From an uncultured Bdellovibrionales bacterium (lineage in GTDB: Bacteria; Patescibacteriota; Minisyncoccia; Moranbacterales; UBA1568), in assembly GCA_964420045.1 (NCBI GenBank), contig CAYQPQ010000002.1, positions 2,979 through 66,978 on the forward strand: a stretch of DNA of 64,000 nt, read 5' to 3'. The notes under the pieces are model-generated. The model searched no databases. It was given only the letters and a program-made list of their open reading frames with translations, and had not been told where the DNA came from. Of the stretch, positions 24,564 through 55,196 are shown in pieces. The position numbers and the translations under genes were made by a program. Every line of letters begins with the position of its first letter. Position 1 is the stretch's first letter.

Positions 24564-27500
24564 TTACTGGCCAAAGATGGATTTAAGACTCGAAAACACA
24601 ATATCGAGCGCATTCTCGGTCGCTTTCGGCGCAATGGAGACAATATCAATCGATTCTCCGACATTCCCCGCCTTGTCTTTCGAAAGCACACGAAGATGAT
24701 ACACCTTCGACGGCGTTAATTTCGAGATCACCACCGTGTGATTCGATACCAACGAAGCGTCCTCTTGCGTCTTCTGCGGATAGACCGACCCCGTCCCCTC
24801 GCCATACTCCACCTGCGAAGTTGCCGACTCATCCGTTGTCCATGTAATCACCAATTGCGCCTCCGCCTCGCCCTGACTCCCGTCGGACGACTTCACGATA
24901 AGCCCCTCGACATTCGCATCAATGATTTGCGGAGCGCGCGTGTCGGTTGCCGTCGTGAACTGCAAGGCGTCGGATTTCGCTTCATTGCCAAAATTGTCTC
25001 TCCCTCGCACCACCAGCGAATAAGATGTTTGAGGCAGAAGATCCCGAAGCAATATGCGGTGTTCTCCCGCTACCATCTTCGCATCCACCTCATCCTTCGC
25101 ATCGCCCGCATTTCCCTCGGGGACATATGTGACAATGGAAGACGTTTCCGTATTGGTCTTCCATGAAATCAAAAGTACGGTCTGCGCCGTTCCCTTTACC
25201 TGCTGAATACGCACTTCTTCAATCTTTGGTCGCGGCAACGTTTCAAAGGAAAGCGTATTTCCTTCATATTCCTCTTCTTCACTATCAACGGTATTGATCT
25301 TGTAATAATATTTCGTGCCATCAAGCAGATCTTCGAGACTGGTCGTATAGGTTGTCTCGGACGTCGAGGTGGATATCTCCTTCACCAAACCAAACGCCTC
25401 CGTAAGTCCGTAGTATATTTTCACTTTGCTCGCCCCTCTTGCCGTAAATTCCAAAATAGCACTCGAAAGACCCGCGCTTTTCAAATTCGGATCGATAACC
25501 GTCGGAGCAGGATCAGTCTTAAACGACTTCTCACCCGAGAGTCCGGTATTACCGTCTTCGTCCGTCCAGCGCGCACGGTAGTGATAGGTTGTCCCCGGAG
25601 AAAGATTCGAGAGCTTGATCTCATGATCCGTCACCTGTTCGGAATTACTTGGTTCCTCGGAATAATAGTCTCCGGAACCCTTCCCATATTGCACCTTGCT
25701 GTCAGACGCCCGATCGGTCGACCACCCAATAGTCGCACTCTTGGTGGTAATGAGTGAAACCGACGGACCGGAAGCGAGCCCCGCCGCCTCGGTGTATTTC
25801 CCGGTCGGATACGCCGAAACAATTTCACTGAATGCGCCGCAGTTATTAACACTGTCACACGCGCGAATCTTATAGTAGTGCAGCGCCTGCGTCAGTCCCG
25901 TGTCCACAAAGGCGATACCGCTCGTCGAGGCAACTTTCGTATACGTCCCGCTCTCACTCAACGAGTGATAGATCTGATAGGAATCGACACCGGAACCGAT
26001 ATCCGCCGGCGCCTCCCATGACACCGCCAGCTTCCATGACTCGGTATTTTTCACTGACACATCCGCGATATCGGTATTCAGCGGAATGCCCGGCGCGCTT
26101 GTATCAGCGACAAACTCAACCGTTTCGTAGGCTCCATAATTTATAACGCCGCCCAAATCCTCCGGATTCTTCGCAACAACATAAAACGTGTTCGTGCCCT
26201 TTTGCGTCGCAAACGCCGATGCTGCAACCGACTCCACTCCGGAAGCGGTAAACGTGCAGGCATCTTCCGACGGCACAGCATTTACCGTATAGCAGTACGT
26301 GAGATCACTCGCATCTCCCGAAAAACTAAACGGCGGATCCCACGTGAACGCGAAAGAGTTCGCGGTGTTTGTTGCCGGTATCGCTTGGACATTTTGCGGC
26401 GCCGTCGGTCCGGCTCCTGCATAGTAAAACGAGGTACGCACATTGCTCGCGCTGACATTTCCCGCCACATCAATCGTACGCAAATAAAAGAAATTCTCTC
26501 CCGTCTGGTAGGCAGCGTCGGCGATATCAACTTGGAGAGCCGTCGTCGTTGACGACCAACCATCGCTCGCAACCGTCGCTGCAATTTGATACTGATATCC
26601 GGCAATCATCGAGTTCGTCGACGGATTGCCGTTTCCGTCCGTTCCCGCGCTCCACAAGAACGAAAAGTCATTGTCAGGAGAGTACACAGCTGGCGCTGCG
26701 GTTACACCAAGCGGATTCGTCGGAGCCGTCGAGTCGAGCCAATAGGAAAACGCCACAGGAAATGTCACACTTGTATTCTGTGCGACATCTTTCGCTTTCA
26801 CGATAAGATAGTATTTCTGTCCGCTTACCAAGGCATTCCCATCCGTATCGACAGTGGCTGTATAGCTGTTTCCTGCTTGGAAATCCCCCTGCGTTGTCGG
26901 CTCAGCACTCGCCGATGTGCCGAAATATACATAGTACCCCGCAACGCCCGACCCGCCGGTATCGGCTGCAGCGGACCACTCGAAATAGGGTGCTGAATAG
27001 GAATACCACGTACCCGTTGTCAAATCGGTTAATCCACCGCTTGCATTCTTGGCAGCGAGTGTCGGCGTACCGGACCATGTTGGCGCCGCAAGATCCGCTG
27101 TCGCTGTCAACGTAACCGAGTTGAGTCGAACTAACTCATTGCCATTCCCAAGAAGCACCGCTTGCCACAACAATCCGCCCGACCCTGCGGGAAATGTCGG
27201 GATATTCGTCGATATCGTCGAGGCGTCATTCGACTGCGCATATCCAGACGATGTTGCCCATGCGGAACCACTCCAATATTGCCATGTCGATCCGCCATCG
27301 CTCGAGAGGCGGTATGCGATATTTCCCGGCGCATCCTCATCCGCAACAAATGAGTCCCACTTCTTCACGCCGGAGGTGTGAACCGCCGAAGCGAGCGTCA
27401 CGGTTTCGTATCCGTTCGAATACGGAGTCGACTGAAACGACGTTCGCGCAACAGAACTGATTCGAAGCTCATCGAGAGAACCCTGAAAGAACCCTTCCGG

Positions 27501-30500
27501 TTTTCCGTATTCGCGACCGGCATATGTTGTCCCGATAAGAATATCGCTCGACGAATCCGCAATCGACATCGAAATAGAGCGCGAATTATTCAGCGTACCG
27601 TCAATATACACACTCATCGTGGAGCCATTATACGTTGCGGCGACATGGTGCCAATTTGTATTAAAAGAACTCGTTGAAGACTGCAAGAAAGCATTGTTGC
27701 CAAACGACCAAACAGCCGCATCGGCATTCGCTGTATTTCCGGTGCCAGCATAAAACTTTCCTTTGTAGGCACTGAACGCGCCGACTTCTTCAATCGTCGA
27801 CCCCCAACTTCCGTTCACGTTGTCACCACCGGCTTGCGCCCACAACGATCCAGCATATCGCCACACCTCTCCGTCTCCGGCTGTCGTGCCCAGTCCCGCA
27901 TAGAGCGCTCCGTTATAAACAGCGAGCGTTCGAACCCGCTCATAGGTTCCGCTTGACCAACTTCCACCAATATCGTCGCCTCCGATAAGCGTCCACGACG
28001 AGCCATCATATTTCCACACTTCCGCATCATCGGTCGATGTGCCAAGCCCCACATACAAAAACCCGGCGTACACAATCATACTGTCCACTTGTTCATAGGT
28101 ACTGTTCGCCCAGCTCGAATTGATACCGTCCCCACCGACACGACTCCACGATGGAGTACCGTCACAATTGGCACACTCCCACACCTCGGCGTCGCCGGCG
28201 CTCGACCCCAAGCCGGCATAGAGCTTCCCAGCATGCACCCCGAGCGTTGTCACTCGTTCAAAATTCGTCGTCCAGCCGGAATACAGACTGTCGCCGCCAA
28301 CCTTAGTCCACGTTGAACCATTCCATCGCCATACTTCCGCGTCATTCGCGCTATTGCCCAAACCGGCGTAGAGGAATCCGCCGTATGACGCCAAAGAATT
28401 TACCTCTTCAAAGCCCGTTGTCCAGCCGGAATTGAGACTGTCTCCGCCGATTTGTTCCCATGTCGAGCCGTTCCAATGCCACACTTCCGCATCATTCGAA
28501 CTCGACCCCAAGCCGGCATACAATTCTCCTCCGTGCCCGATAAGACTCGTCACCGTTTCATAGGTATTCGCATCCCAACTCCCATTTACACCCTGACCAC
28601 CGATAATGGTCCATGTCGTCCCATCAAACTGCCACACCATAGCATTGCCGATAGTGGCGACGCCCGTTCCCGCATACAAATAGTCACCCGTCACGTTTAA
28701 AACCTCAACACTTCGGAGCCCACGAAATCCCCAGCTGAAATTCACATAATCACCTCCGATAAGCGTCCATGACGATCCGTTCCACGCCCATTCCTGTGCC
28801 GAAACCGTCGAACTCGAAGTACTCACACCGGCATAGAGCGTCGATCCGGACACGGCAAGGGTACTTACAATAGTGTGTGTATTCGTAAAACTCCCATTCA
28901 CGCCGTCGCCGCCGATTTTAGTCCAGGTTGATCCGTCAAAACTCCATACCTCATTGTCTCCGGCCGTTGAGCCAAGACCGGCATAGAGTGTTGTCCCGTC
29001 ATTCACGATGGAGTACACCATTTCATAGCTCGAACTGTCCCAGCTTGAATTTACGGTGTCGCCGCCGATCTTGCTCCATGTCGAGCCGTTCCATTTCCAT
29101 ACTTCTGCGTCGCCTGCCGTCGAGCCGAGACCAACATAGAGATTCCCGCCAAAATAGGTCATCGAGTAGACATATTCGAACGTCGTATCCCAACTTGAGT
29201 TCAGACTGTCGCCGCCGATCTTGCTCCATGTCGAGCCGTTCCATTTCCAGACTTCGGAATCCCCGGCTGTCAAACCCAGCCCGGCATACACGTTCGTACC
29301 GTCATTCACCAAGCTATATACGCCTTCGTAATTTGTCGTCCAGCCGGAATTCAAACTATCACCGCCGATCTTGCTCCATGTCGAGCCGTTCCATTTCCAC
29401 ACTTCGGCATCATTCGCGCCCGTCCCGAGACCAGCGTAGAGCTCCCCGCCAACAAACGTCAGCGCATTCACCGCCTCAAACGTATTAATCTGCCAGCTTG
29501 AATTGAGCGCATCGCCGCCGATCTTGCTCCATGTCGAGCCGTTCCACTTCCACACCTCGGCATCGCCCGTTCCACTTCCCAGTCCGACATAGAGATTCGT
29601 GCCGTCATTCGCCATGACATACACCGCCTCAAACGTATTGATTGCCCAGCAATTGTTCAGTCCGTCTCCGCCGATCTGCGTCCATCTCGTTCCGTTCCAT
29701 TTCCACACTTCGGCGTCGCCCGTTCCGTTTCCCGTCCCGACATAGAGATTCCCATCGAGAACATTCGACGATTCGATAGTCGGATTTCCGTTCAAATCCC
29801 AACTTCCGTTAATATCGTTCCCCGCCTGCTGCGTCCATCCGGATGCCGAATCATTCGCCAGCTCATAGGTGAGCTTGCCCGTCTCATTGTCGTAGTACAA
29901 CTGATAGTCGCCCTTATCGACAATACCCTGCCGTTGAGAATGGCTTCCCGCCGAAAAAGCCGAGGAAAATTTCGTCCACGCTTCAATCGTATTCGCCTGG
30001 GACAAAGAATTTGCCGTCGAATCCGGAACCGACGCAAAAGCTGTCGTTCCGTTGAGCGAGAGCGCATTGTTTAGATTCCCCGAAACAAAGCTTCCTCCCG
30101 ATACCGTCGCGTGATTCGCATTCGACGAACTATCATTGGCCGTCGACCCGCTCGATTCGTCGAAATGATAGAGTGCTACCGTATCGCTATCGTCCGCATA
30201 GTTCTTCACCGAAAGCCGCGATTCCGTATTCGAACTATCGAGAGTCACTCCACTCGAAGCAACATAGTCACTCGGCGTTGCAAAATTCCATGCTTCACCA
30301 ATCTCCCCGTCAGCGAAAATACTGTGGATCCGACCCGAAAAGAACAGAAACGCGCCCGCCGCCACACAAGCGGACAAGACAGATAGACCGATGTATCTCG
30401 GCTTCAGACTCCAAAAAATTCGAGCTATCCGAAGCAGGAATCGCCCAAAGAAAACTCCGATCGATATGAGGAGTCGATAGAAATGGTTGTGTTTTTGCAT

Positions 30501-30509
30501 AATACCCAA
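24564..30509 (-). CDS. Giant surface protein of 1981 aa. It has an N-terminal membrane anchor, two LamG/ConA-like lectin domains, about 14 tandem beta-propeller-type repeats with the motif YAGLGS.AGDAEVWKWNGSTWSKIGGD, and C-terminal FN3/Ig-like domains
   Basis: The N-terminal transmembrane segment is LSACVAAGAFLFFSG. Repeats of about 50 aa are clear in the translation, and near-identical units of about 150 nt are visible at about 28900-29720, for example ccgccgatcttgctccatgtcgagccgttccatttcca four times. LamG-like segments are ...ALYHFDESSGSTANDSS... and ...NWHHVAATYNGSTMSVYIDGT...LDELRIS. Confidence 0.8.
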   Translation of the reverse strand: MGIMQKHNHFYRLLISIGVFFGRFLLRIARIFWSLKPRYIGLSVLSACVAAGAFLFFSGRIHSIFADGEIGEAWNFATPSDYVASSGVTLDSSNTESRLSVKNYADDSDTVALYHFDESSGSTANDSSSNANHATVSGGSFVSGNLNNALSLNGTTAFASVPDSTANSLSQANTIEAWTKFSSAFSAGSHSQRQGIVDKGDYQLYYDNETGKLTYELANDSASGWTQQAGNDINGSWDLNGNPTIESSNVLDGNLYVGTGNGTGDAEVWKWNGTRWTQIGGDGLNNCWAINTFEAVYVMANDGTNLYVGLGSGTGDAEVWKWNGSTWSKIGGDALNSSWQINTFEAVNALTFVGGELYAGLGTGANDAEVWKWNGSTWSKIGGDSLNSGWTTNYEGVYSLVNDGTNVYAGLGLTAGDSEVWKWNGSTWSKIGGDSLNSSWDTTFEYVYSMTYFGGNLYVGLGSTAGDAEVWKWNGSTWSKIGGDTVNSSWDSSSYEMVYSIVNDGTTLYAGLGSTAGDNEVWSFDGSTWTKIGGDGVNGSFTNTHTIVSTLAVSGSTLYAGVSTSSSTVSAQEWAWNGSSWTLIGGDYVNFSWGFRGLRSVEVLNVTGDYLYAGTGVATIGNAMVWQFDGTTWTIIGGQGVNGSWDANTYETVTSLIGHGGELYAGLGSSSNDAEVWHWNGSTWEQIGGDSLNSGWTTGFEEVNSLASYGGFLYAGLGNSANDAEVWRWNGSTWTKVGGDSLYSGWTTNFERVTTLGVHAGKLYAGLGSSAGDAEVWECANCDGTPSWSRVGGDGINSSWANSTYEQVDSMIVYAGFLYVGLGTSTDDAEVWKYDGSSWTLIGGDDIGGSWSSGTYERVRTLAVYNGALYAGLGTTAGDGEVWRYAGSLWAQAGGDNVNGSWGSTIEEVGAFSAYKGKFYAGTGNTANADAAVWSFGNNAFLQSSTSSFNTNWHHVAATYNGSTMSVYIDGTLNNSRSISMSIADSSSDILIGTTYAGREYGKPEGFFQGSLDELRISSVARTSFQSTPYSNGYETVTLASAVHTSGVKKWDSFVADEDAPGNIAYRLSSDGGSTWQYWSGSAWATSSGYAQSNDASTISTNIPTFPAGSGGLLWQAVLLGNGNELVRLNSVTLTATADLAAPTWSGTPTLAAKNASGGLTDLTTGTWYSYSAPYFEWSAAADTGGSGVAGYYVYFGTSASAEPTTQGDFQAGNSYTATVDTDGNALVSGQKYYLIVKAKDVAQNTSVTFPVAFSYWLDSTAPTNPLGVTAAPAVYSPDNDFSFLWSAGTDGNGNPSTNSMIAGYQYQIAATVASDGWSSTTTALQVDIADAAYQTGENFFYLRTIDVAGNVSASNVRTSFYYAGAGPTAPQNVQAIPATNTANSFAFTWDPPFSFSGDASDLTYCYTVNAVPSEDACTFTASGVESVAASAFATQKGTNTFYVVAKNPEDLGGVINYGAYETVEFVADTSAPGIPLNTDIADVSVKNTESWKLAVSWEAPADIGSGVDSYQIYHSLSESGTYTKVASTSGIAFVDTGLTQALHYYKIRACDSVNNCGAFSEIVSAYPTGKYTEAAGLASGPSVSLITTKSATIGWSTDRASDSKVQYGKGSGDYYSEEPSNSEQVTDHEIKLSNLSPGTTYHYRARWTDEDGNTGLSGEKSFKTDPAPTVIDPNLKSAGLSSAILEFTARGASKVKIYYGLTEAFGLVKEISTSTSETTYTTSLEDLLDGTKYYYKINTVDSEEEEYEGNTLSFETLPRPKIEEVRIQQVKGTAQTVLLISWKTNTETSSIVTYVPEGNAGDAKDEVDAKMVAGEHRILLRDLLPQTSYSLVVRGRDNFGNEAKSDALQFTTATDTRAPQIIDANVEGLIVKSSDGSQGEAEAQLVITWTTDESATSQVEYGEGTGSVYPQKTQEDASLVSNHTVVISKLTPSKVYHLRVLSKDKAGNVGESIDIVSIAPKATENALDIVFSSLKSIFGQ

Positions 30510-50437: not shown

Positions 50438-51454
50438 TCAAGACCGATCAGGCGAATTGTCCGAATATGGCTCATCATAAGCCTGTTCTCCCGAAAAACT
50501 TCGCGCGATGCCGGAGAGCGTTTCGCGCATCAGAAGAAGACTCGCGTCGTCGAGCACCGAGAAAGCAAACGTGTTCGGATTCTTCCGAGAAAGCGCTTTC
50601 ACGAGTTTTTGCACCGCTTCCGGCGTCTGCTCATCGGCACGCGACACAACAATCCATTCCGGCTTCTCAAGCAACTTCGGATTGTACCGCTTGAGCTCCC
50701 TGCGAATATTCATATAGTCCGTAACCGGCGTTTTGCTATCCGCCGCAACCAGATGAAAAAGCACGCGCGTCCGCTCTATGTGCTGCAAAAACTTATGACC
50801 CAAACCCTTCCCTTTCGAAGCACCCTCAATGAGTCCCGGAATATCCGCAATGATCGTATCGAAGTACACGCCAAGATTTGGCTCGAGTGTGGTGAAGCGA
50901 TAGTTCCCCACCTTGCTCGACGCATCGGTAAGCGCATTAAGCAGACTCGACTTCCCCACATTCGGATACCCGATAAGCCCGATATCGGCTATCATCTTGA
51001 GCTCCAAACGAAGCGTTATCGACTCCCCGGGAAGCCCCGGATTCGCCCGATTCGGTGTCGTATTCCGGCTCGACCGAAAGTGAAAGTTCCCGAATCCGCC
51101 GTTTCCGCCGCGCGCCACCAATACCTTCTGCCCGGGAAACACAATGTCATAGTCTTTGCCCTGTGCCACATCATGCGCCACCGTCCCCACCGGCACGCGT
51201 ACGATTTTGTCGGCGCCGTCGGCCCCGGTCCGCATGTTTTGCTCGCCATTTCCGCCATTCCCCGCGCGCACGCTTTTGACCGATCGAAACGGGCGAAGCG
51301 CACCCAAATCCGGCACGCCAAAAAGCACGACGTTCCCGCCACGTCCACCATTTCCACCGGTCGGCCCCTCGTTCATCATGGTCCGCGTAAACCGCACCAC
51401 CCCATCCCCACCCTTCCCCGCCGACACCTCAAGAGTAACATCATCGATAAGCAT
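50438..51454 (-). CDS. obg: GTPase Obg/CgtA
   Basis: The Obg-fold glycine-rich N-domain is MLIDDVTLEVSAGKGGDGVVRF...GGNGGRGGNV, followed by the G-domain DIGLIGYPNVGKSSLL. Confidence 0.9.
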   Translation of the reverse strand: MLIDDVTLEVSAGKGGDGVVRFTRTMMNEGPTGGNGGRGGNVVLFGVPDLGALRPFRSVKSVRAGNGGNGEQNMRTGADGADKIVRVPVGTVAHDVAQGKDYDIVFPGQKVLVARGGNGGFGNFHFRSSRNTTPNRANPGLPGESITLRLELKMIADIGLIGYPNVGKSSLLNALTDASSKVGNYRFTTLEPNLGVYFDTIIADIPGLIEGASKGKGLGHKFLQHIERTRVLFHLVAADSKTPVTDYMNIRRELKRYNPKLLEKPEWIVVSRADEQTPEAVQKLVKALSRKNPNTFAFSVLDDASLLLMRETLSGIARSFSGEQAYDEPYSDNSPDRS

Positions 51455-51600
51455 AGGTTGGAAGAGTATCACAGAATACGTTGAATAGCAAGAATATCTT
51501 CTTGACAACAGAAATTTGAATCATCAACTAAAGCACGGTCCATTGACAAAAAATTAATAATACGATACAAAGTATTTGCTATCAACCACCGGAGAAATCC

Positions 51601-51999
51601 ATGAAAGCAAGTGCAGTCCTTTTCAACATCGCCATCCTTACTACCACCCTCTGCTTCAGCAGCATAGCTCAGGCAGAAACGCCAAGTTGGTGCTCAATAG
51701 CCAAGAGCACCTTAAGTGAGGTGTACAGGAAGTACAACATAGTCGACCCCACACACGCAGGATACGCCGTCAGAGATTTCGAAGCAGCGCTTCCCTCATT
51801 GCCAAGAGAAATCGGGAAATCCATCATTGATGGCATTGTCCAAGGTAATGGCGGGGAACGCTACGAGGCAATCCCTAACCAAAACCGTGCGGAGGGATAC
51901 TTGAGAGCGTTCGAGCGAATTATCGAAAATAACTGCGAAGAGAAGAAAGACCCAACAGAGAAACTCTTGGCACCACCAACAAACCTAAGGGTGATGTAA
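51601..51999 (+). CDS. Small secreted hypothetical protein
   Basis: The signal peptide MKASAVLFNIAILTTTLCFSSIAQA is cleavable in appearance, and a rho-independent terminator follows the ORF. Confidence 0.45.
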   Translation: MKASAVLFNIAILTTTLCFSSIAQAETPSWCSIAKSTLSEVYRKYNIVDPTHAGYAVRDFEAALPSLPREIGKSIIDGIVQGNGGERYEAIPNQNRAEGYLRAFERIIENNCEEKKDPTEKLLAPPTNLRVM

Positions 52000-52022
52000 T
52001 CAGAAACAATCAACCCTCCAAA

Positions 52023-52052
52023 ACGACGAGACAGGAAGTCCGTCGTTTTTTA
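52023..52052 (+). terminator. Rho-independent terminator after the 51601-51999 ORF
   Basis: acgacg-agacaggaagtc-cgtcgt forms a hairpin followed by tttttt. Confidence 0.7.
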
Positions 52053-52143
52053 TTCCCCCCACAGAAGCAAAATCAAAAAATTTCAAATGAAGAAAGGCTC
52101 TCCGATTTCGGACAGCCTTTACCTTTACAAATTCAATCTCTCC

Positions 52144-52818
52144 TTATTCAACGTTTTGATTCAACCATCCTATCTGAGCACATACTTCCTTAAGAAGACT
52201 CTCGCGACGACACCGAGCAGCAAGAACGTCAGCCTGTACTCGAAAATCCGACTCATCCGCTAAGGCAGCTACTCTCTCCGCTTCCTCAAGAAATCCACGA
52301 TATGTTCCGAAAATATTACAGTGATGGCAGGGACCCTTGTGATCCAGAGCATTCGACTCGCAGTAGCACCCCCCTTTCACTGACTGACGAGCCATGTTCA
52401 CAAGTGGTGGCAGTTTCTCGAGCAACAACGAGATCTCTTGTCGGGTAACAACATTCGTTGAAACCCAAAACCCCTGTCTCAAATCGAAGGGGGTGATAAA
52501 GCATTCCACGAATATCCCGGGATATATCGTAAGCGCCGCATATCCAAGCCCGGCCGCAAGTTTCGCGCGAACGGCATTGCTTCTCCCTGAACCCACAAAC
52601 AGTCCATGAACCTCAATAATCAGCTCTCGGACCTCGCTTTGATACTCTCCATCCTTCGGGCAGAATACGCTCACGCATTGCTCGGAGGATATCCCCAGCT
52701 CTTCAACGCTGAGAACAGCCTTGCGTAATGCAGCCTTCAATTCTGAAACCCGGGAAAGAGAATATTCCATTCCCCTAAAAGCAGCTCCATACACCACGAT
52801 TACCGGCATGACAGACAC
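52144..52818 (-). CDS. Hypothetical protein with a C-terminal Cys/His cluster CYCES...PCHHC; function unknown
   Basis: The 224-aa ORF lies in a coding context. A Zn-finger-like cluster GGCYCESNALDHKGPCHHC is present, but no family was recognised. Confidence 0.4.
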   Translation of the reverse strand: MSVMPVIVVYGAAFRGMEYSLSRVSELKAALRKAVLSVEELGISSEQCVSVFCPKDGEYQSEVRELIIEVHGLFVGSGRSNAVRAKLAAGLGYAALTIYPGIFVECFITPFDLRQGFWVSTNVVTRQEISLLLEKLPPLVNMARQSVKGGCYCESNALDHKGPCHHCNIFGTYRGFLEEAERVAALADESDFRVQADVLAARCRRESLLKEVCAQIGWLNQNVE

Positions 52819-53028
52819 CTCTCTCGGTTGGTAAGAGTACTACACAAACGACACTTCAGGAACAGAAAAAATGTACCGTAGTTCCGAGTTCCCGTCAACA
52901 TTGAGCAAACAGAAACATCAGGGCGGGTTTACCATAAACAGCAAGGTACTGCTACCGCACCATTTACTTCACCGAATGAAGCGCGATGCGGTTGCCTTCG
53001 GTGTCGAGAACAAGCGCCATAAAAAAGA

Positions 53029-53562
53029 TTAAAGCAGCCACTTCCTTTTCATGGTCCTATAGGACCATGAAAAGATACGTTGCTGTAAGAGGAACTGTTG
53101 CTCAGCTTGCTGTTGAGCTTGCGTCGAATCCGTCGTTTGATTCTGTATAGAGGAGGACATGCGACTTTGGATTATAACTGAGCCTTCAGATACATATCTT
53201 TGTCCATATTCATCAGTGAGATATATTTTTACCGACATCTCGGTACTCGGTTGATTCGGAACCGGCACCATAAAAGATAAGTCAGGACTACAACCCAACA
53301 GTCGCGGCTTTTTATAGATCTCACCAGATCCCCCTATCTCCCACTTATGAAGATAAAGATTAATCCTGCCAACATTTTTAATCTGTAGCTTTGGTTCATT
53401 TTCAGCAAAAAATCCAAGAATCGAAACTGCAACGAAGTCCTGAATGTCCTTTAGACGCCTGTTTATTTCATGCTGTTTCCATCCAAACCACCCAGCACCG
53501 AAAGCAGCGCCAATCGTTCCAAGAGATCCTAGTGCATTCCAGAAAAGATTCCAATCATCCAT
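53029..53562 (-). CDS. Small membrane-anchored hypothetical protein
   Basis: The N-terminal transmembrane helix is LGSLGTIGAAFGAGWFGW and the 3' end overlaps a perfect palindrome. No family was recognised. Confidence 0.4.
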   Translation of the reverse strand: MDDWNLFWNALGSLGTIGAAFGAGWFGWKQHEINRRLKDIQDFVAVSILGFFAENEPKLQIKNVGRINLYLHKWEIGGSGEIYKKPRLLGCSPDLSFMVPVPNQPSTEMSVKIYLTDEYGQRYVSEGSVIIQSRMSSSIQNQTTDSTQAQQQAEQQFLLQQRIFSWSYRTMKRKWLL

Positions 53563-53579
53563 AACAATATTTCACAAAA

Positions 53580-54671
53580 TCACCTCCACCCCTGCCCGAC
53601 AATGCGCCAGACAATTTGCTCTTGTTGGACATTCACGACGCCGCCGGGGGTTTGTTGGGGGACGAGCTGTTGAAGTTTTTTGAATTCCATCGAGAGACCG
53701 AATGCGGCGCTCTTTTCGGTCGACTCAACGAATGCTATTTTGTAGTCTTTGCGATTCTCGCTCCGCCCGTCTATTTCCGTTTCCGGATTCCACGAATCCG
53801 TAAGATGCATATCGGCAGTATAGGATTCATAGAGCTGGGACAATATGTCGGCAAGCTTCGGATCGGCATCGACGATCGTCGAAACACCGAGCTCCTCGCG
53901 CGCTTCCTTTCTCCCGATATAGTACTGGTGCGAATAGAGTTTCTCGGTAAAGTGCTCGATGATATTCGCAACACCCTCTTTGGTCATCGGATGCGTATGA
54001 CTCTTTAGCAGCCGCCCCGCCAAAACCTTAATGAGATTGTGCGTCCGGTTCACATTGCCCAAAGCCAAGGGATGAATGGAGGGCGTTGCCTCCATGAATT
54101 TCATAAAAATATCGGCGAGCTTCTCGTCACTCTTCACGCCGAATTTGTTCTTCGCAAGATCGAAGTAACTCATCACCTCCTCGACCGAAATCTGAATGCG
54201 TCCGTCCGGATTCTTGGGATCGGCGGGATTGAAAAAGTTCGACGTCGACGGATCAATCGGCGAGAGCTCGCTCATGTCGCTCATCACGATTTCGTCGGCG
54301 CCGAGCGCGATCATCGTCGCCGCAGAGTGCGCCTTATACGGCACCAAAACGGAGAACTTTTCACAATACTCGCGTATCATCGAGACCAGTCGCCACGGCA
54401 CCATCGTGTCGCCGCCTGCACTGTAGAGGACGAGATCAATATGCTTCACCTTCCCTATCGCCCGCAATTGCCGGCTTATGATCGGGATGATATCCATCGC
54501 CACCCGCGCATTGACCGGCCCCTGCCGATCACTCGTCACATACGCCACCACCCGCGACCCGCGCGCGGACTCTATCGCCTCAAAAAGCTTTGAACGTTCC
54601 ATAAGAAGAAATTTACAACAGAAAACTGTCCCGGAAGTATATCGCGAGAACATCGCCAAGACAAGACTCAA
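53580..54671 (-). CDS. SDH-family (S49/ClpP-fold) serine protease
   Basis: IDLVLYSAGGDTMVPWRLVSMIREYCEKFSVLVPYKAHSAATMIALGADEIVMSDMSELSPIDP matches the SDH/SppA Clp-fold pattern, with a GG oxyanion region and a catalytic Ser within HSAAT. Confidence 0.65.
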   Translation of the reverse strand: MSLVLAMFSRYTSGTVFCCKFLLMERSKLFEAIESARGSRVVAYVTSDRQGPVNARVAMDIIPIISRQLRAIGKVKHIDLVLYSAGGDTMVPWRLVSMIREYCEKFSVLVPYKAHSAATMIALGADEIVMSDMSELSPIDPSTSNFFNPADPKNPDGRIQISVEEVMSYFDLAKNKFGVKSDEKLADIFMKFMEATPSIHPLALGNVNRTHNLIKVLAGRLLKSHTHPMTKEGVANIIEHFTEKLYSHQYYIGRKEAREELGVSTIVDADPKLADILSQLYESYTADMHLTDSWNPETEIDGRSENRKDYKIAFVESTEKSAAFGLSMEFKKLQQLVPQQTPGGVVNVQQEQIVWRIVGQGWR

Positions 54672-54731
54672 AAAGCAGGGGCGTCACACACTGTGACACC
54701 CCTGCAGTGGCAGTATATCTCAAGCGAGACC

Positions 54732-55196
54732 CTACCGGCTGGTCATCACGGTCACGCCGCCTTCGGCATTGCAGGCGCGAACGGTCACCATGTTGTTGGT
54801 ATCCTTGACAATGGAATACCCGGTAAGCGCCGCCGTTCCATTTGGATCAACCGGAATGCTCTTCAAGTAGCTGCCGAGCGCTGTCGAGAGATCAATGCAA
54901 TCTGTTGCGCCGGTAACATTGCACCCTCCAGCCCCAGAAATAGCGCATCCGGTTGTTGCCGTGCCGATCTGCTTCTCTGTCGAAGTAATCGCTGCCGGGA
55001 AGGTTCCCTTGGAATCATTCACATACGTATGCACCGCCGAAAGAATATTCTGGATATCCGTCGTCCGACGCGCGTTCCGCGTATCCTGGAAGCGCTTCGC
55101 TGGATCGAGCGCTACAAACACTACCACCGCCAACACCGCGAGAAGTCCGATAACCAAGAGAATTTCCATGAGCGTAAAACCTTTCTGCTGCCTCAT
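54732..55196 (-). CDS. Type IV pilin-like protein (prepilin N-terminal cleavage/methylation domain)
   Basis: KGFTLMEILLVIGLLAVLAVVVFVAL is a class III signal with G|FTLxE, and a C-terminal Cys pair is present. Confidence 0.85.
   Translation of the reverse strand: MRQQKGFTLMEILLVIGLLAVLAVVVFVALDPAKRFQDTRNARRTTDIQNILSAVHTYVNDSKGTFPAAITSTEKQIGTATTGCAISGAGGCNVTGATDCIDLSTALGSYLKSIPVDPNGTAALTGYSIVKDTNNMVTVRACNAEGGVTVMTSR

Follow-up and report, generated by a model that had tools for sequence, protein, structure and literature searches.

We propose that an SDH-family Clp-fold serine protease and the 177-aa membrane-anchored protein encoded behind it may form a conflict module of the anti-phage/abortive-infection type, similar in type to the system FS_HP_SDH_sah, and we give this reading a probability of roughly 45%. 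Both genes lie in the window, that is, the whole stretch of 64,000 nucleotides that was analysed (Table 1). A preliminary description of the locus had offered three guesses about a three-gene module. The one with the best support is that of a defence or toxin-like cassette, but only for the first two genes. Conserved linkage was found between the protease gene and the 177-aa gene, which would be the real unit, whereas the third gene, coding for a Cys/His-cluster protein, is not linked to them.

Table 1. Features of the protease locus and its surroundings (positions in the window)
Feature	Position	Strand	Basis
Second insertion relative to L087/L088, outside the module	51474..52163		comparison with L087/L088
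132-aa signal-peptide ORF, inside the second insertion	51601-51999	plus	ORF
Cys/His protein, 221 aa, lineage-specific neighbour, outside the module	52144..52809	minus	homolog starts, locus comparison
Glyoxalase/VOC remnant, last 19 codons (FMALVLDTEGNRIALHSVK) plus stop codon	52964..53023	minus	comparison with relatives
Swapped cassette segment	53013..53584		homology breaks, GC shift
Partner cassette gene, 177 aa	53029..53562	minus	ORF, AF2 model, hydropathy, family alignment
Perfect 30-nt palindrome (15+15 nt inverted repeat)	53045..53074		sequence
SDH-family Clp-fold serine protease, 340 aa	53580..54602	minus	ORF, Pfam/PHROG profiles, homolog alignment
Promoter-like site TTGTCT-17-TATACT before the protease gene	54636..54664	minus	consensus match only
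Intrinsic-terminator-like hairpin, 14 pairs plus T run, ending the pilin gene	54675..54705	minus	predicted, strong

Regarding the protease, the mechanically called ORF starts at a TTG codon, spans 53580-54671 and encodes 363 aa, and this was the length first reported for an SDH/S49-type protease. The SDH-family Clp fold was confirmed but the length was not: the homologs (about 2000) are all 338-343 aa long and start at the ATG equivalent to 54602 (MERSK...), and therefore the gene was shortened to the limits given in Table 1. Pfam SDH_protease (PF01972) matched the N-terminal half only (8e-16, 58.3 bits, cut-off 31.3), the best PHROG match, phrog_11747, covered the full length (2e-37) and is annotated as of unknown function, and the NCBIfam equivalog NF047768 scored 66.7 bits against a cut-off of 250. 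By these profiles the protease is a member of PF01972 outside the NCBI equivalog group NF047768. Its 33%-identical homolog in E. coli carries the RefSeq label 'SDH family Clp fold serine proteinase'. There was also a weak Clp-core match around the GGD/Ser motifs to ClpP-related phage head-maturation proteases (S49/S14; phrog_1684, phrog_53, NF045542; 1e-5 to 1e-9), but it spans only about 70 residues and phrog_11747 matches best. Furthermore, no capsid, portal or terminase genes were found near the protease in the part of the window that was examined, nor in those loci for which gene or Pfam annotations were looked at.

Gly63-Gly64, Ser93, Asp117 and His225 are invariant in six sequences reaching down to 24% identity and also in 15 Parcubacteria sequences. 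The active site, with its nucleophile Ser, Gly-Gly oxyanion motif, Asp and His, appears to be intact. The protein has no hydrophobic segment and is predicted to be cytoplasmic. At least 494 Parcubacteria species carry it, at 62-100% identity, and it looks like a hyper-conserved resident gene of these bacteria with a putative promoter of its own, recognised by consensus match.

This promoter-like site bears on another of the first guesses, that the genes form a pilin or adhesin processing system of the adjacent type IV pilus locus. Indeed, the pair adjoins genes with an N-terminal methylation motif, both in the window and in close relatives. However, a strong terminator-like hairpin and the promoter-like site stand between the pilin gene and the protease, and the protease has pilin neighbours only in the window's own lineage (80 loci were compared). 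Furthermore, the 177-aa protein has no G/FTLxE prepilin motif, whereas the neighbouring pilins have it, and prepilin peptidases belong to the membrane aspartic proteases, a class apart from the Clp-fold enzymes. We regard a processing role for the pilus as extremely improbable and no longer connect the pair with it.

The gene of the 177-aa protein starts 17 nt downstream of the protease gene. In its AF2 model (pLDDT 80.6) an N-terminal glycine-rich membrane helix is followed by an 8-strand beta-sandwich, and the C-terminal part consists of a disordered Q/S/T-rich linker (about residues 137-157, pLDDT below 50) directly before the conserved last strand, WSYxTxKxxW. The ORF and the N-terminal helix of the single-transmembrane protein described before are real, although the helix is marginally hydrophobic in the window copy (Kyte-Doolittle 19-residue maximum of 1.09 versus up to 2.2 in homologs). 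The charges flanking the helix suggest an N-out/C-in topology, which would place the sandwich in the cytoplasm and therefore within reach of the cytoplasmic protease. Neither this protein nor the Cys/His protein matched Pfam, NCBIfam or PHROGs, in agreement with the earlier remark that the two fit no recognised family. Solved structures searched by sequence gave no match for any of the three proteins. PADLOC v2 gave no hits either, whether for the window proteins, for the phage and E. coli homologs or for eight representatives of the cassette-slot proteins, and this counts against the defence reading.

In order to describe the linkage without regard to the protease, we used 21 metagenome loci picked by the TM protein alone. 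An SDH protease ends within about 65 nt upstream in 15 of them, and a proteasome-like protein lies directly upstream in 2 others. The latter was recognised by Pfam in L119 (Proteasome, 5e-6, above the cut-off) and was assigned in L116, where no Pfam match was obtained, because the protein is 29% identical to that of L119 (E 3e-28). No protease was seen upstream in the other 4 loci, but in 3 of these the sequence available on that side is only about 210-350 nt long, and a protease may lie further upstream. We interpret L116 and L119 as a putative swap of non-homologous proteases upstream of the TM family. Functional coupling is argued from this position behind a protease in 15 plus 2 of the 21 loci, and the 177-aa protein seems to be a true partner of the protease; the pairing can also be seen in L005, L091, L092 and L100.

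Seen from the side of the protease, the arrangement is operon-like: a gene on the same strand, coding for 90 aa or more, follows within 50 nt in 52 of 78 SDH loci, often overlapping, and precedes it within 50 nt in 18 of 79. About one third of the SDH loci have no tightly linked downstream gene, which counts against the pair reading, and no linked gene stands behind the protease in the close relatives L090 and L104. Furthermore, the SDH homologs of E. coli, Klebsiella and several viruses are solitary, therefore an adjacent partner is not required by the protease.

What stands behind the protease is replaced between relatives. Between the window and its close relatives, homology is lost at two points, the protease stop codon and position 53012, and the GC content of the segment in between is about 42% versus about 51% in the flanks. 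An unrelated 4-TM gene occupies this slot in L087-L089, and the slot is empty in L090. A glyoxalase/VOC gene is intact behind the protease in two other relatives (L001 and L003), and by this comparison the replaced cassette ends on the right at the remnant of such a gene in the window. Over all the loci, the gene behind the SDH protease is hypervariable, with at least 15 unrelated families in addition to singletons, and a profile-profile comparison looking for a common origin of the families merged only three pairs of them (c45/c123, c8/c13 and c48/c83). Identical SDH proteins have different partners (L101, L102 and L103; L003 and L004), and among SDH pairs at 90-97% identity the partner differs nearly always. 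In five loci pieces of the SDH gene flank the cassettes as recombination scars. The contents of the slot have been exchanged by recombination with the protease gene as the homologous anchor.

The same pattern could arise from a mere hotspot beside a resident gene, and this is a serious rival, which we consider possible though on the doubtful side. According to it, the conserved SDH gene is a recombination anchor, the accessory genes are parked behind it with no functional relation to the protease, and the protease is a housekeeping enzyme or a self-sufficient single-gene system. The SDH identity was 75.4% for same-cassette pairs and 74.5% for different-cassette pairs, so the protease does not co-vary with the cassette type, as would be expected from a hotspot. 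The scars, the unrelated cassette families, the slots found empty in some close relatives and the homologs that stand alone in prophages of E. coli or on a ColE1-type plasmid speak for it too. So do the mixed contents of the slot, which include self-sufficient systems and metabolic genes (glyoxalase, NYN, Bro-N, a PIN trio and, further along, type III restriction-modification); the glyoxalase, NYN and Bro-N genes do not resemble effectors and also count against the effector reading. The P2/P4 hotspots, which are defence/variation hotspots flanked by conserved genes (PMC9122126), are alike in that unrelated accessory or defence genes are exchanged between close strains at a fixed site by a conserved gene. 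Unlike them, the anchor here itself belongs to a family with links to phages and a defence system, and one cassette family keeps its protease neighbour even when the type of protease changes. Such a change is not predicted by a neutral hotspot, and the proteases stand upstream of the TM gene in unrelated genomic contexts even though the loci were chosen blind to SDH. In addition, the tight or overlapping spacing is found downstream of the SDH gene and not upstream, and the type III methyltransferase is never immediately behind SDH, one to three small genes intervening. If the hotspot reading is true, the locus is still a well-defined case of homology-facilitated cassette exchange in reduced genomes.

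A pair devoted to membrane proteostasis or regulated proteolysis has to be considered as well, with a protease that acts in stress or quality control and a small membrane protein that serves it as anchor, adaptor or substrate; NfeD-stomatin and FtsH-HflKC would be the analogues. The protease and its cassette are located between grpE and dnaK, within the hrcA-grpE-dnaK-dnaJ heat-shock operon, in several orders (L023, L025, L046 and L084), and the proteasome-like version in L119 is also between grpE and dnaK. The extreme conservation of the protease fits such a role, and many of the slot genes code for membrane proteins (23 of 52, versus a background of 33%). As in NfeD (STOPP)-stomatin, a Clp-fold serine protease gene stands beside the gene of a small membrane-anchored protein. 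Nevertheless, the partner is not an SPFH/Band_7 protein and has no Pfam match, the protease has neither a membrane segment nor an OB-fold tail, and its weak similarity to NfeD1b_N (E 0.022, 14.8 bits) is far under the cut-off of 40. Unrelated genes replace the partner between strains with identical proteases, which would not be expected of a housekeeping partner, and the phage homologs sit at moron sites. Thus, we find a proteostasis pair improbable.

Returning to the conflict module, the window itself has no recognisable defence gene, its neighbours being pilins, obg and a DEAD-box helicase, and the defence-type context comes from the relatives. A type III Mod/Res system lies behind the cassettes in about 17 of 83 protease loci (raw count), and PemK, a PIN domain, DUF3800, an AlwI endonuclease and an Mrr-methyltransferase fusion occur in the neighbourhood as well. 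The SDH homologs of E. coli prophages (47 of 5426 genomes) sit as antisense morons with the Q antiterminator on one side and the holin on the other, and a search at the nucleotide level found no diverged E. coli copies of the gene. In Porphyromonas phages the homologs adjoin HicAB, and a 4.1-kb ColE1-type plasmid carries a homolog as its main cargo.

DefenseFinder includes a model named FS_HP_SDH_sah, and the protease carries the same SDH_sah (PF01972) domain. This system was reportedly validated by Fillol-Salom et al. (Cell 2022) and is said to be found on phage-inducible chromosomal islands. The likeness consists of two genes, a PF01972 protein and a small domain-less protein, in accessory or defence regions; it is drawn from the model name and the PF01972 domain. 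There are differences too. Judging by the name, HP would be the first gene, but in the present locus the variable gene comes after the protease, and FS_HP_SDH_sah would be chromosomal-island cargo, whereas here a stable chromosomal protease of Parcubacteria has a rotating partner. We found no mention in the literature of PF01972, DUF6941 or DUF6680 in this context, and the DUF6941 cassette gave no match to plasmids. According to one report, very few defence systems are known from candidate-phyla-radiation bacteria, and LdgA and DdgA are defence genes almost exclusive to Patescibacteria (PMC12366544). Patescibacteria is the phylum that includes Parcubacteria.

As for how the conflict module might work, the conserved cytoplasmic protease would control the 177-aa membrane protein encoded behind it, most plausibly by cutting its disordered linker. 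The cut would release the C-terminal strand that completes the beta-sandwich, and the glycine-rich helices might then assemble and damage the membrane. Protease-activated effector pairs are known in bacterial immunity, such as a gasdermin with its protease or a trypsin-like protease with a proenzyme nuclease (PMC12799240). The proposed logic would be the same, with an adjacent protease that licenses an effector by cleavage, the effector being interchangeable and the protease class recurrent. However, those pairs use a caspase, trypsin or subtilisin, whereas here the enzyme is a Clp-fold SDH or proteasome-like protein, and cleavage is a proposal. The partner is neither a gasdermin nor a nuclease but, by prediction, a helix-anchored Ig-like sandwich, and we discarded a gasdermin-protease system on account of this fold.

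A broader and rather unlikely extension is that of an immune hub in Parcubacteria, where the nearly invariant SDH protease would sense infection and license interchangeable, mostly membrane-acting effectors, the slot being swapped by protease-anchored recombination and at least one effector family being also driven by a proteasome-like enzyme. If true, bacteria with very few known defence systems would have a modular kind of immunity, with 'one activator, many effectors'. If the conflict-module reading is right, the 340-aa SDH protease, a single and easily recognised gene, would be the marker by which hundreds of Parcubacteria species reveal a hypervariable slot. New effectors could be sought there, such as DUF6941, DUF6680, the TM-sandwich family and many nameless families. 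Clp-fold and proteasome-like enzymes would join the proteases that drive bacterial immune effectors, and the SDH-family morons of E. coli prophages would gain a function.

Regarding the palindrome near the end of the 177-aa gene, it is perfect over 30 nt as first described, but it had been placed one base off and is clear of the stop codon (53029-31). It covers codons 163-172, which encode FSWSYRTMKR and are among the last 15 codons of the gene. It is unique in the window, where 0 are expected by chance, and as RNA it folds with -29.5 kcal/mol (z = -3.8). It was absent from the 86 loci searched and from 7 other family members examined, and the closest relative, L100, has one uncompensated synonymous change in it. 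These results do not support the operator suggested at first. We also rejected an attachment site or cassette boundary, because the palindrome is neither recurrent nor conserved; the real right junction of the cassette is 20-30 nt beyond it, in the glyoxalase remnant. On this comparison, the palindrome is a lineage-specific hairpin within the coding sequence and a bystander.

The Cys/His gene is missing from all 80 other SDH loci, and L100, whose SDH protease is 97% identical, has other genes in its place. It has its own promoter-like site (52898-52870). The mechanically called ORF (52144-52818) was shortened because the homologs start at MPVI..., and the Cys/His cluster is real, although it is at residues 148-165 of 221 aa and not at the C-terminus of a 224-aa protein, as had been stated. 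The protein has a Met-Pro N-terminus, and of 30 diverse relatives at least 90% keep it. Its AF2 model (pLDDT 64.5) gives two beta-alpha-beta units; the C-terminal half is helical and bears the motif CYC...C.HH. Pfam gave no match in 10 relatives, nor did the PDB when searched by profile. A tautomerase superfamily assignment of the N-terminal domain was set aside, as its features are suggestive but have no statistical support, and hhalign of the family against approximate sequences of 4-OT and MIF gave probabilities below 1%. By locus comparison, the gene is a lineage-specific bystander from an uncurated family.

Finally, the three same-strand genes reported between the pilus genes and obg do exist as minus-strand ORFs, but a plus-strand ORF between the third gene and obg, the signal-peptide one of Table 1, was overlooked. 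Rfam gave nothing above threshold between 50000 and 56000, and no tRNA was found near the locus. The second insertion, which contains this plus-strand ORF, also has hairpin-plus-T-run sites.

Between the pilin gene and obg the window carries three minus-strand ORFs, and in this respect the preliminary description was largely right. The first ORF encodes, as proposed there, an SDH-family Clp-fold protease, with a Pfam match to the N-terminal half only (PF01972, 8e-16), a full-length match to phrog_11747 (2e-37) and an NCBIfam Clp_like_SDH score far under the equivalog cut-off. However, the length of 363 aa did not hold: about 2000 homologs are every one 338-343 aa long and start with MERSK, and therefore we assigned the gene the span given in the table instead of the mechanical ORF. 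The second and third proteins had no match in Pfam, NCBIfam, PHROGs or PADLOC. The names of the organisms from which the homologs come place the source of the window in Candidatus Moranbacteria (Parcubacteria, candidate phyla radiation).

Coordinates of the features in the window and in the related loci (L numbers)
Feature	Locus	Position	Strand	Remarks
Pilin gene	window	54732-55196		N_methyl motif
Terminator, 14-pair	window	54705-54675		between pilin gene and protease
Promoter-like site	window	54664-54636		between pilin gene and protease
Protease gene	window	53580-54602	-	start by homologs (MERSK)
Second gene, 177 aa	window	53029-53562	-	
Palindrome, perfect 15+15 nt	window	53045-53074		inside codons 163-172 of second gene
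Glyoxalase/VOC remnant	window	52964-53023	-	last 19 residues
Third gene, 221 aa	window	52144-52809	-	from MPVI...
Insertion relative to L087/L088	window	51474-52163		
Signal-peptide ORF, 132 aa	window	51601-51999	+	inside the insertion
obg	window	50438-51508		
ORF, 1981 aa	window	24564-30509	-	
SDH protease fragments flanking cassettes	L101	5944-6021; 6950-7028		3' or 5' end of gene
SDH protease fragments flanking cassettes	L025; L064	9723-9776; 10537-10656		3' or 5' end
SDH protease fragments flanking cassettes	L053; L073	5197-5283; 6096-6173		3' or 5' end
Proteasome-beta-like gene	L116; L119	1457-2224; 2038-2961		directly upstream of TM-sandwich gene
Zinc-ribbon protein, ~200 aa	L005; L091	6548-7147; 3399-4007		behind TM-sandwich gene
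E. coli SDH-family proteinase	L095; L098	2229-3224; 4001-4996		stand-alone moron beside lambda-type holin
Trypsin-like peptidase and SDH-like genes	L145	2200-4241		Thermus thermophilus plasmids

The protease is hyper-conserved, whereas its neighbour genes are not. When one genome per species was scanned, the 340-aa protein turned up in at least 494 species, with identities of 62-80%; among the matches listed, almost all came from Parcubacteria lineages. Gly63-Gly64, Ser93, Asp117 and His225 do not vary, even at 24% identity, and no hydrophobic segment was found in the protein. Regarding the neighbours, ORFs were called and clustered in 80 species loci, six earlier loci and the window, and the commonest neighbour family reached at most 18 of the 83 loci bearing the protease. 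A same-strand gene of at least 90 aa lies at most 50 nt downstream, often overlapping, in 52 of 78 loci, and the same criterion upstream of the protease selected only 18 of 79. This downstream slot is filled by at least 15 families and 9 singletons, for the most part mutually unrelated in profile-profile comparison. In 16 loci the occupant belongs to a two-TM family of about 210 aa, in 15 it is DUF6941 with a coiled-coil TM protein behind it, and in 6 it belongs to the same family as the window's 177-aa protein. Other occupants are a family of about 225 aa with a TM protein behind it, a gene trio with a PIN domain, DUF6680, a Bro-N protein and a Cys-rich protein, among others.

Slot contents are replaced even between near-identical genomes. 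Relatives whose protease gene is 85-90% identical at the nucleotide level have the slot filled by an unrelated four-TM gene (L087-L089) or empty (L090), the homology with the window breaking at the protease stop codon and at 53012. One exact protease protein precedes three different arrangements, namely NYN and DUF6941 (L101), DUF6941 on its own (L102) and something else again (L103); a second exact protein has DUF6941 behind it in L003 and a T4 Y00F-like gene in L004. Among species representatives, proteases 90-97% identical almost always have different cassettes.

These exchanges have left scars. Behind the NYN insertion in L101 the 3' end of the protease gene is repeated over about 65-79 nt, and this repeat matches the 3' end of the L102 protease gene exactly; C- or N-terminal protease fragments flank the cassettes in four more loci. 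In the window, the segment below the second gene encodes FMALVLDTEGNRIALHSVK and a stop codon, the end of a glyoxalase/VOC gene. L001 and L003 have the whole of this gene behind the protease, and in the window most of it has given way to the present cassette. The fragments and the remnant, together with a cassette GC of about 42% against about 51%, indicate recombination as the route of cassette exchange, in which the conserved protease gene serves as the anchor and the right-hand join is less specific.

Such turnover could arise simply because the protease gene, resident or self-sufficient, adjoins a recombination hotspot, an explanation that we consider possible but rather less likely than not. 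What a neutral hotspot does not predict is that the 177-aa gene keeps a protease neighbour while the type of protease changes. We sampled the 177-aa family independently of the protease, by a metagenome scan that gave 21 loci. The SDH protease ends at most about 65 nt upstream in 15 of them, and a proteasome-beta-like protein takes its place in two. The separately identified loci L005, L091, L092 and L100 agree with this linkage. The L119 protein matches Pfam Proteasome over the cut-off (5e-6), and that of L116, without a Pfam match of its own, was assigned through it (29% identical, E 3e-28). The other four loci have no protease in the available sequence, which in three extends only about 210-350 nt upstream. 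That a protease neighbour is kept although its type differs is the strongest argument for a probable functional coupling. We tentatively favour, with a probability of roughly 45%, a conflict module of protease plus effector made of genes 1 and 2; for these two genes only, the earlier guess of a defence or toxin-like cassette is the best fit. Its weak points are that protease and cassette do not co-evolve (mean protease identity among species representatives is 75.4% in same-cassette pairs vs 74.5% in different-cassette pairs), that many SDH homologs are solitary and that there is no defence gene within the window itself.

The AF2 model of the 177-aa partner (pLDDT 80.6) has a long N-terminal helix and an eight-strand sandwich. 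A Q/S/T-rich linker at about 137-157 falls below pLDDT 50, and the conserved last strand, R.RAW[S/A]Y.T.K..W, completes the sandwich. The helix is flanked by negative charges on its N-terminal side and positive charges after it, which would put the sandwich in the cytoplasm. Because the helix is glycine-rich and weakly hydrophobic in the window copy, membrane insertion is putative. Behind the gene in L005 and L091 lies one for a protein that combines a TM segment and a coiled coil with a C-terminal zinc ribbon, and a DNA methyltransferase comes next. The module may exist there in a form with three genes, which has no relation to the Cys/His gene of the window.

That third gene does not belong to the module, contrary to the three-gene cluster first proposed. 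L100 shares the TM gene and has a 97% identical protease, but carries a 332-aa protein and DUF6524 in place of the third gene, whose family profile matched no ORF in the 80 other protease loci. Its four close homologs (70-99% identical) lie between the slot and obg in the same narrow lineage. An exhaustive profile search with its N-terminal domain (about 115 aa) gave 229 relatives, mostly stand-alone proteins of 115-125 aa that start with Met-Pro and have two predicted beta-alpha-beta units. The family is uncurated, gave no Pfam match in the 10 relatives searched, and may be tautomerase-like but divergent. One subfamily, of about 215 aa, retains the CYC..N..D.KG.C.HH motif in a helical extension; the motif is partly lost in L090. 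Compared with L087/L088, in which the Cys/His gene directly adjoins obg, the window has an insertion beside its third gene. The signal-peptide ORF in this insertion, with hairpin-plus-T-run sites at either side, has a sole, weak match to phrog_19352 (E 0.0013). Elsewhere the window holds a 1981-aa ORF.

The palindrome is indeed perfect over 30 nt, with 0 expected by chance, and forms a stable hairpin, although it had been placed one base off and does not overlap the stop codon of the second gene. Its proposed role as an operator was rejected: it recurs neither in the window nor in the 86 loci then fetched, L100 has one synonymous, uncompensated change, and it is absent in all seven other family members examined, whose conserved WSY.T motif uses other codons. 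A role as cassette junction was also rejected. No T run stands directly behind it. The most fitting interpretation is a hairpin specific to this lineage, within the 3' coding region, that might stabilise the transcript or attenuate read-through.

Pilus processing, suggested by the adjoining pilin gene, is very improbable, as a terminator and a promoter-like site separate that gene from the protease, and pilin genes adjoin the protease only within the lineage of the window.

Regarding the wider context, a type III methyltransferase (PADLOC 3e-89) and a Res helicase lie behind the cassettes in about 17 loci, directly adjoining the protease in none. PemK, an Mrr-methyltransferase fusion, DUF3800, a PIN domain and an AlwI endonuclease also occur near the protease. 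DefenseFinder includes a model FS_HP_SDH_sah, which Fillol-Salom and colleagues reportedly validated in 2022 as a two-gene system. In several Parcubacteria orders (L023, L025, L046, L084) protease and cassette lie between grpE and dnaK, inside the hrcA-grpE-dnaK-dnaJ operon, which would be either a second hotspot or heat-shock co-regulation; a proteostasis or regulated-proteolysis pair is an improbable reading of the unit. The same site holds the proteasome-like unit of L119, together with a trypsin-like peptidase.

The E. coli homolog (331 aa, 33% identical, E 4e-50) matches no PADLOC model. Its gene lies in antisense orientation, as a moron, between those of the Q antiterminator and the holin in lambdoid prophages, and 47 of 5426 complete genomes carry it with at least 99% identity. 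Other SDH homologs adjoin HicAB in Porphyromonas phages, follow the tail genes in Gordonia phage BeeGee or are the main cargo of a 4.1-kb ColE1-type plasmid. In IMG/VR viral contigs a small overlapping downstream gene is often present: three divergent homologs (L127, L130, L131; 36-40% identical to the window protease) have one of 95-125 aa with an identical 16-nt overlap, low-complexity in appearance in L127 and L131. In these two the next gene encodes a protein with a GDI[FL] motif, and in L131 a type III methyltransferase comes after that. Two proteases are also paired on Thermus thermophilus plasmids, where the gene of a trypsin-like peptidase overlaps an SDH-like Clp-fold gene downstream of it.
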